From: Escherichia coli
GTDB lineage: Bacteria > Pseudomonadota > Gammaproteobacteria > Enterobacterales > Enterobacteriaceae
NCBI RefSeq assembly: GCF_013315695.1
Contig: NZ_CP054353.1
Length of the DNA: 64,000 nt
Strand: one strand, 5' to 3'
This document shows, piece after piece, positions 59,730 to 60,844 of this stretch; within the stretch, counting starts at the first letter, position 1; the number at the start of each line of letters is the position of its first letter. The notes under the pieces were generated by a model. It had not been told where the DNA came from, searched no databases, and saw nothing but the letters and a program-made list of their open reading frames with translations. The position numbers and the translations under genes were made by a program.

Positions 59730-59880
59730 TCATTAGTTTTTTATGATTTATCCCAATGTACTTCCCGATTAATATCGGGGAGTGCCTTAATGGAAAAGGA
59801 GATAACTAAACCTTAATAAATACATCAGTAAAATATCGCAACAATAATATATTTTAAAAAATTATGGTAATGACTCCAAC

Positions 59881-60384
59881 TTATTGATAGTGTTTTATGT
59901 TCAGATAATGCCCGATGACTTTGTCATGCAGCTCCACCGATTTTGAGAACGACAGCGACTTCCGTCCCAGCCGTGCCAGGTGCTGCCTCAGATTCAGGTT
60001 ATGCCGCTCAATTCGCTGCGTATATCGCTTGCTGATTACGTGCAGCTTTCCCTTCAGGCGGGATTCATACAGCGGCCAGCCATCCGTCATCCATATCACC
60101 ACGTCAAAGGGTGACAGCAGGCTCATAAGACGCCCCAGCGTCGCCATAGTGCGTTCACCGAATACGTGCGCAACAACCGTCTTCCGGAGCCTGTCATACG
60201 CGTAAAACAGCCAGCGCTGGCGCGATTTAGCCCCGACATAGCCCCACTGTTCGTCCATTTCCGCGCAGACGATGACGTCACTGCCCGGCTGTATGCGCGA
60301 GGTTACCGACTGCGGCCTGAGTTTTTTAAGTGACGTAAAATCGTGTTGAGGCCAACGCCCATAATGCGGGCTGTTGCCCGGCAT
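59881..60384 (-). CDS. insB: IS1 transposase InsB frame
   Basis: 167-aa ORF identical to copy 1. Confidence 0.9.
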
Positions 60385-60578
60385 CCAACGCCATTCATGG
60401 CCATATCAATGATTTTCTGGTGCGTACCGGGTTGAGAAGCGGTGTAAGTGAACTGCAGTTGCCATGTTTTACGGCAGTGAGAGCAGAGATAGCGCTGATG
60501 TCCGGCGGTGCTTTTGCCGTTACGCACCACCCCGTCAGTAACTGAACAGGAGGGACAGCTGATAGAAACAGAAGCCAC
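60303..60578 (-). CDS. insA: IS1 InsA
   Basis: 91-aa ORF differing from copy 1 at one residue (SCSVTDG versus SCSATDG). Confidence 0.9.
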
Positions 60579-60633
60579 TGGAGCACCTCAAAAACACCAT
60601 CATACACTAAATCAGTAAGTTGGCAGCATCACC

Positions 60634-60844
60634 ACAAACGGTACGTAAATTGGTAGAAGGTGGTATTGACCTGAAAGATGTCAACGTCGGCAATATGCAT
60701 TTCTCGGAAGGGAAAAAGCAAATCAGCAGTAAAGTTTATGTCGATGACCAGGATCTCGCGGACTTACGTTTTATTAAACAACGTGGCGTGAATGTTTTCA
60801 TTCAGGACGTCCCTGGCGATCAAAAAGAACAAATCCCTGACTAA
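60634..60844 (+). pseudogene. agaB: PTS galactosamine-specific IIB component, 5'-truncated at the IS1 junction
   Basis: Only the C-terminal part (..PQTVRKLVEGGIDLKDVNVGNMHFSEGKKQISSKVYVDDQDL...QIPD) is present; no native start codon; the frame is open into the IS1 end. Confidence 0.8.

Follow-up and report, generated by a model that had tools for sequence, protein, structure and literature searches.

How an insertion sequence comes to stand without its target duplication, and beside a gene that has lost its beginning, is the question raised by the agaB locus of this E. coli strain. In the window (i.e. the whole stretch of DNA that was analysed, 64,000 nucleotides long), a complete IS1 lies between kbaY and the 3' part of agaB, a gene of the galactosamine-specific transporter. 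A previous inspection of the letters alone, hereafter the sequence-only reading, had noticed these two anomalies and had attributed them to an IS1-adjacent deletion or to IS1-IS1 recombination rather than to simple insertion. Comparison with 5,426 complete E. coli genomes uncovered both the empty site and the intermediate state of the locus. The most likely history is one in which IS1, in two stages, brought about the decay of the galactosamine-specific transporter operon within a single E. coli lineage.

A complete IS1 abutting a truncated agaB

The features surrounding the junction are the following; strains AF3 and EC25 are those used for comparison in the next section.

59730-59865, plus strand: retained kbaY-agaB spacer (136 bp, 26.5% G+C), identical to that of AF3 up to the IS1 end
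59857-59865: surviving left copy of a 9-bp target duplication, AAAAATTAT (AF3 has both copies, EC25 one)
59866-60633, minus strand: complete IS1 of the IS1A type (768 bp), with both terminal repeats (0 mismatches)
59881-60384, minus strand: insB, reading frame of 167 codons
60303-60578, minus strand: insA, reading frame of 91 codons
60633-60634: deletion junction, where the last IRL base meets agaB codon 89 at its third base (from base-by-base comparison with AF3)
60635-60844, plus strand: agaB remnant (pseudogene), codons 90-158 and stop (QTVRKLVEGG...EQIPD, the C-terminus of AF3 AgaB)

Both 54-nt terminal probes matched the element with 0 mismatches, and its size and terminal inverted repeats are those of IS1A. 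The right extremity (IRR, at 59866) is on the kbaY side and the left one (IRL, at 60633) on the agaB side. The arrangement of insA and insB' is that of a -1 frameshift, with the A6C motif AAAAAAC at IS1 position 307; likewise, the copy of strain MSB1_4I is labelled in RefSeq as an IS1A family transposase with programmed frameshift. Since the reading frames and the frameshift motif are intact, this IS1 could be active. It is separated by 2 nt from the other IS1 of the window (48003-48770) and by 1 nt from the AF3 copy. A rare G-to-A change was observed at window position 60541 (IS1 position 93 from IRL). It leads to the substitution A13V in InsA and the transposase, adjoining the N-terminal Cys-x-x-Cys motif. 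Searched with a 41-nt probe able to seed on the A variant alone, this variant was recorded at 10 places only in the 5,426 genomes and, within MSB1_4I, exclusively in the agaB-adjacent copy.

The flanks read ...TTTTAAAAAATTAT - IS1 - ACAAACGGTACG..., as previously quoted, and no 8-9 bp direct repeat was found between them in the window, in line with the absence of target duplication first noticed by the sequence-only reading. This absence is explained by a later deletion (see below) and is no argument against the element being an IS1.

The kbaY-agaB spacer also displays a hairpin (CCCGAT-TAAT-ATCGGG, window 59766-59781) with a perfect stem of 6 bp and a loop of 4 nt, located 37 bp past the kbaY stop. 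It is devoid of a T-run and may contribute, as an RNA element, to the processing or stability of the operon transcript.

A progenitor in strain AF3

The kbaY-agaB region (2.9 kb) was searched against the 5,426 complete E. coli genomes. A single exact match to this query was obtained, in MSB1_4I, while AF3 matched the query over its full length, with 305 additional bp. In AF3, IS1 occupies the identical left junction and is bordered on both sides by the 9-bp duplication AAAAATTAT, as in a simple IS1 insertion. The right copy is followed by 30 further bases and then by a full-length agaB of 477 nt, which begins 39 bp from IS1. The empty site was found in strain EC25, where AAAAATTAT is present once and IS1 is lacking. 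A cryptic target duplication, looked for in these two strains, thus did exist; its right copy lies inside the deleted DNA, and the deletion reading stands.

Alignment to an intact kbaY-agaB region, suggested earlier as the way to size the missing DNA, gave an exact value: the window corresponds to AF3 minus 305 bp, beginning at the first base outside the intact IRL. The lost segment, which in AF3 occupies NZ_OZ547117.1 2884726-2885030, takes in 39 bp upstream of agaB, where the right duplication copy and the ribosome-binding site are located, and the first 266 nt of agaB, including codons 1-88 and the conserved phospho-histidine motif. Left of the junction, IS1 included, window and AF3 differ at 3 positions; to the right, 2,569 bases are identical. 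The deletion endpoint therefore coincides exactly with an intact IS1 terminus, the other junction is unchanged, and AF3 represents the progenitor, with a simple insertion at the same site, its AAAAATTAT duplication and an intact agaB. The view that a deletion, rather than a simple insertion, had produced the locus was supported by this comparison.

Origin of the deletion

An adjacent deletion results from intramolecular transposition of the element into a target close by, with loss of the DNA between. At the present locus, IS1 first entered the AT-rich spacer between kbaY and agaB, at 39 bp ahead of the agaB start codon, and duplicated AAAAATTAT; this state is still present in AF3. Later, in the ancestor shared by MSB1_4I and the window strain, this resident IS1 would have transposed replicatively, within the same molecule, into a target lying 305 bp away in agaB. 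The DNA between IRL and target would have been released as a circle and lost, the outcome being an intact IS1 with its IRL abutting agaB codon 89, without duplication. The product of this second stage is directly visible, and it is from this product that we infer the mechanism. In our opinion, a one-step adjacent deletion mediated by the IS1 transposase is the probable origin of the junction. The part of agaB around the right endpoint was also struck by IS1, independently, in other strains: PSS-16 displays a simple IS1 insertion 11 bp from the present junction, with duplication GTAAATTG.

The exact loss of 305 bp from an intact IS1 terminus, relative to AF3, upholds the earlier proposal of either an adjacent deletion or an IS1-IS1 recombination; of these two, the one-step route is favoured. 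In the two-step route, a second IS1, oriented like the resident copy, would have entered agaB ~305 bp away from it, and RecA-dependent recombination would have removed one IS1 together with the DNA between. We regard this as unlikely, even though the product would be the same (one IS1 and no duplication) and three observations speak in its favour. IS1 entered agaB many times in other lineages in the same orientation, the PSS-16 insertion included; double occupancy does occur, since at least one genome, 23CRST036, has two IS1 copies in the region from kbaY to agaC; and the lineage harbours ~40 or more IS1 copies. Yet, this route requires two events instead of one, the intermediate with two IS1 copies at these positions was present in 0 of the 5,426 genomes, and the A at 60541 is shared with no other IS1 copy of MSB1_4I, so that nothing suggests a chimeric IS1. 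An IS1 assembled in part from another donor was accordingly rejected, the A located 93 nt from IRL being a private point mutation; recombination with an identical copy is still compatible with this observation.

Transposase-independent illegitimate recombination or replication slippage, by which 305 bp were removed and the IS1 boundary reached by chance, is very improbable. The IS1 terminus and the last bases of the deleted segment do share the dinucleotide CC, but a 2-bp identity is trivial, and the break coincides exactly with the final base of a complete IS1 end, as is characteristic of junctions made by a transposase; a random endpoint would land there about once in the length of the region. 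It is hardly conceivable that the window IS1 arrived independently of that of AF3 in a single insertion-with-deletion, or that the structure is an assembly artefact. Nothing specific speaks for an independent arrival, although duplication-less IS movements with simultaneous deletions were proposed for other insertion sequences (PMC11708052). It is effectively refuted by the left junction, which is common to AF3, MSB1_4I and the window, identical to the base, set in near-identical backgrounds and encountered in none other of the 5,426 genomes. As for an artefact, the sequences of the window and of MSB1_4I were derived independently and differ by SNPs and an extra IS1, and both display the deletion junction. 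Adjacent deletion, the origin preferred here, is a recognised cause of missing target duplications (PMC11708052).

Strain distribution and order of events

MSB1_4I (NZ_LR898874.1) was assembled independently and carries an identical stretch of 2,901 bp, which indicates that the window structure is no assembly quirk. Among the 5,426 genomes, the left junction occurred only in AF3 and MSB1_4I, the AF3-type right junction in AF3 only, and the deletion junction in MSB1_4I only. The window differs from MSB1_4I by 7 SNPs over ~63 kb and by an extra IS1 inside garD. Its comparison with AF3 revealed 8 SNPs over ~26 kb, and four SNPs in these shared 26 kb are private to AF3. The deletion and the G-to-A change at 60541 are derived characters shared by the window and MSB1_4I only. 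The simplest history would place the IS1 insertion in the ancestor of all three, the deletion in the ancestor of MSB1_4I and the window, and the garD insertion in the line of the window.

Four of the seven SNPs between the window and MSB1_4I are located within 8 kb around the aga cluster (window 55411, 58346, 58640 and 63451). They correspond to AgaE Ala174 (Val in both relatives, MSB1_4I and AF3), two synonymous changes in agaS, and a Gly versus Glu difference in RsmI. Such a slight clustering could be the trace of a small patch of recombination.

The garD insertion is as follows.

48003-48770: first IS1 of the window, inside garD after nucleotide 77 (garD begins at 47926)

This copy displays a clean 9-bp duplication, TGTGGCAAT. 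It is a recent strain-specific insertion, since neither of the close relatives (MSB1_4I and AF3) has it. The disruption of garD (galactarate dehydratase) predicts a loss of growth on galactarate. With its own duplication and its absence from the relatives, involvement of this IS1 in the agaB deletion was rejected. The two copies are in direct orientation, 11,095 bp apart, and bracket garD', prlF-yhaV, agaR and the GalNAc branch (kbaZ-agaVWEFA-agaS-kbaY). A composite IS1 transposon was also considered and dismissed, because each copy arrived separately, that of garD with TGTGGCAAT and in the window line, and the 11-kb interval is collinear with the normal chromosome. Homologous recombination between the two copies could delete or amplify the bracketed block.

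A further feature of the window is a CS1/CFA-type chaperone-usher fimbrial cluster between exuR and exuT, composed of four genes (chaperone, major subunit, usher-like TcfC-domain protein and CfaE/CblD-type tip adhesin). Its location at about 14500-19600 was estimated by collinearity with MSB1_4I 675400-680500, not from the reading frames of the window.

The agaB remnant and the remainder of the aga cluster

The operon genes on either side of IS1 and agaB are listed below.

58869-59729, plus strand: kbaY, tagatose-bisphosphate aldolase subunit, intact (286-codon frame; MSB1_4I annotation)
60883-61686, plus strand: agaC, subunit IIC of the galactosamine transporter, intact frame, with IS1 now upstream of it
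61676-62467, plus strand: agaD, galactosamine transporter subunit IID, intact frame
62468-63235, plus strand: agaI, intact frame, last gene of the operon

The agaB remnant is composed of 69 codons and a stop, and is devoid of the native start codon, the ribosome-binding site and the RIDNRLVHGQ motif. A complete mannose-family PTS IIB domain, with its histidine motif, start and ribosome-binding site, is thus no longer present. That agaB was reduced to its C-terminal part without native start had already been claimed, and residues 90-158 are indeed all that remain; RefSeq likewise flags agaB of MSB1_4I as 'incomplete; missing N-terminus' and as a pseudogene. Full-length AgaB can be aligned over residues 1-158 to a solved structure, 3EYE, and the related IIB protein 8YRI shares the conserved N-terminal motif RIDNRLVHGQ. 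The histidine of this motif is, as we assume from knowledge of the family, the phosphorylation site. The 69-residue remnant cannot function, because the histidine motif sits in the deleted part.

No second copy of the deleted agaB DNA was found elsewhere in the 64-kb window. The 305-bp segment was recorded in 5,311 of the 5,426 E. coli genomes, at 5,369 places, with at most two per genome and one place on a plasmid. Since this segment is single-copy and chromosomal across E. coli, the presence of agaB elsewhere in the genome of the window strain would be unlikely.

The twelve other aga genes in the window all display intact reading frames, and AgaF retains Gly91. The GalNAc transporter and catabolic genes (agaVWEF, agaA, agaS and kbaYZ) have intact frames, and the GalNAc route appears structurally intact. 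The expected loss of the IIB component next to an intact GalNAc PTS was therefore borne out, both by the AgaB residues that are left and by the GalNAc-branch frames.

Consequences for expression and sugar use

The agaBCD genes form the galactosamine uptake system and belong to the agaS-kbaY-agaBCDI transcript, which starts from the agaS promoter; lesions upstream are polar on agaBCD (PMC3668189). Gene kbaY is the last one of the agaS operon upstream of the agaB-adjacent IS1. Within the transporter, AgaB would be the IIB subunit passing phosphate to galactosamine via AgaC and AgaD. From the published genetics (PMC3668189) we infer that the galactosamine uptake route is dead, as the AgaB start, ribosome-binding site and phospho-histidine motif are lost. 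A GalNAc-positive, galactosamine-negative phenotype is plausible on the basis of the same genetics (PMC3668189), and its prediction is reasonable since the twelve other aga genes are intact.

Both insA and insB are transcribed toward kbaY, away from agaC, and no outward sigma-70-like site spanning the new junction was found on the plus strand of the window. At the IS1-agaB junction of AF3 (L001 3321-3348), the arrangement TTGGCA-16-TATTAT faces agaB with 10/12 sigma-70 matches; TTGGCA belongs to the left end of IS1, and TATTAT to the duplicated target and its flank. Prentki reportedly described in 1986 that IS1 can supply the -35 element of a hybrid promoter. As judged from its consensus match, the AF3 hybrid site could express agaBCDI independently of the AgaR-controlled promoter.

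The deletion removed the -10 part of this hybrid site, and the promoter-like site is lost in the window. An outward IS1 promoter for agaC was thus rejected, given the deleted -10 part and the lack of a plus-strand site across the junction. Because the IS1 genes point away and no outward site is present, any expression of agaCDI must come from read-through from the agaS promoter across IS1. The sequence-only reading had made agaCDI dependent on either read-through or an outward IS1 promoter; the former is retained as the remaining source, and the latter is abandoned in the absence of a site at the junction. IS1 is classically polar on downstream genes. Genes agaC, agaD and agaI are intact, but their position downstream of IS1 is expected to expose them to its polar effect.

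Recurrent IS1 insertion between kbaY and agaC

IS1 was recorded in or beside the kbaY-agaC stretch in 412 of the 5,426 complete genomes, mostly as one agaC insertion. In the orientation of the window (IRL facing agaB), it was observed in 25 genomes, at no fewer than 11 positions, in the ~430 bp upstream of the junction. The opposite orientation (IRR facing agaB) was encountered in 53 genomes, at no fewer than 7 positions. Taken together, at least 18 independent positions were occupied in ~78 genomes over ~450 bp, with IS1 in one orientation or the other. The idea that IS1 was selected to drive the expression of agaB found no support, since 25 versus 53 genomes, with intergenic as well as intragenic insertions in both classes, amount to no orientation bias. 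It is quite doubtful that kbaY-agaB-agaC was repeatedly hit because the loss of AgaBCD is selected in some niches, and not merely as an AT-rich hot spot for IS1. If this were true, the deletion in the window would be one step in a convergent loss of the transporter.

Significance and comparison with known systems

The loss of agaB is an ordinary event of a well-understood kind, affecting a known operon through a known element, i.e. a textbook IS deletion. Its main value lies in annotation and in a predicted phenotype (GalNAc used, galactosamine not). Gene agaB should be annotated as a pseudogene that arose through an IS1-adjacent deletion; its pseudogene status is already acknowledged by RefSeq in MSB1_4I. 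The locus further offers a clear natural illustration of the way in which a target duplication goes missing, with the progenitor kept in the sister strain AF3. It adds one data point to the recurrent disruption of E. coli galactosamine transporter genes by IS1, and raises no new mechanistic question.

IS1-adjacent deletions have been known since the 1970s. Reif and Saedler are said to have described, in 1975, IS1-promoted adjacent deletions in the gal region of E. coli K-12, and Turlan and Chandler reportedly dissected IS1 'replicative deletions' in 1995 (EMBO J 14:5410). As in these classical deletions, the resident IS1 of the agaB locus is intact, the deletion extends from its exact terminus into the adjoining DNA, and that side no longer has its copy of the duplication. 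In contrast to them, the agaB case is natural, fixed in a clinical or commensal lineage and small (305 bp), and its mechanism is deduced from the product.

In clinical E. coli, IS1-adjacent deletions of 11-66 kb removing nfsB were seen arising (Wan et al. 2023, PMC10569738). Both they and the agaB deletion are chromosomal, lie immediately beside an IS1-family element and abolish the function of a neighbouring gene. Yet, the nfsB deletions were large, selected by nitrofurantoin and arose in the laboratory, whereas only 305 bp were removed here and a sugar-transport subunit was affected. For IS150, a simple insertion with duplication came first and a later adjacent deletion erased the duplication (PMC11708052). 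The same order of insertion and deletion is found in the agaB history; the IS150 case, however, concerns the IS3/IS150 family and has its progenitor in time-series samples, while the agaB case concerns IS1 and has its progenitor in a sister strain.

A search of the literature on IS1 in agaB returned no report, the only match concerning IS1 in manX of E. coli C. Other lesions of the aga/gam cluster include a 2.3-kb agaW'-agaA' deletion in K-12 and a truncated agaC in O157:H7 EDL933, a strain that is GalNAc-positive and galactosamine-negative through this broken agaC (PMC3668189). EDL933 thus displays the very phenotype predicted here, and both strains illustrate a strain-specific decay of the galactosamine branch in a cluster that is otherwise kept (PMC3668189). 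Unlike in K-12 and EDL933, the lesion described here affects agaB, instead of agaC or agaWEFA, and its cause would be an IS1 insertion followed by an adjacent deletion.
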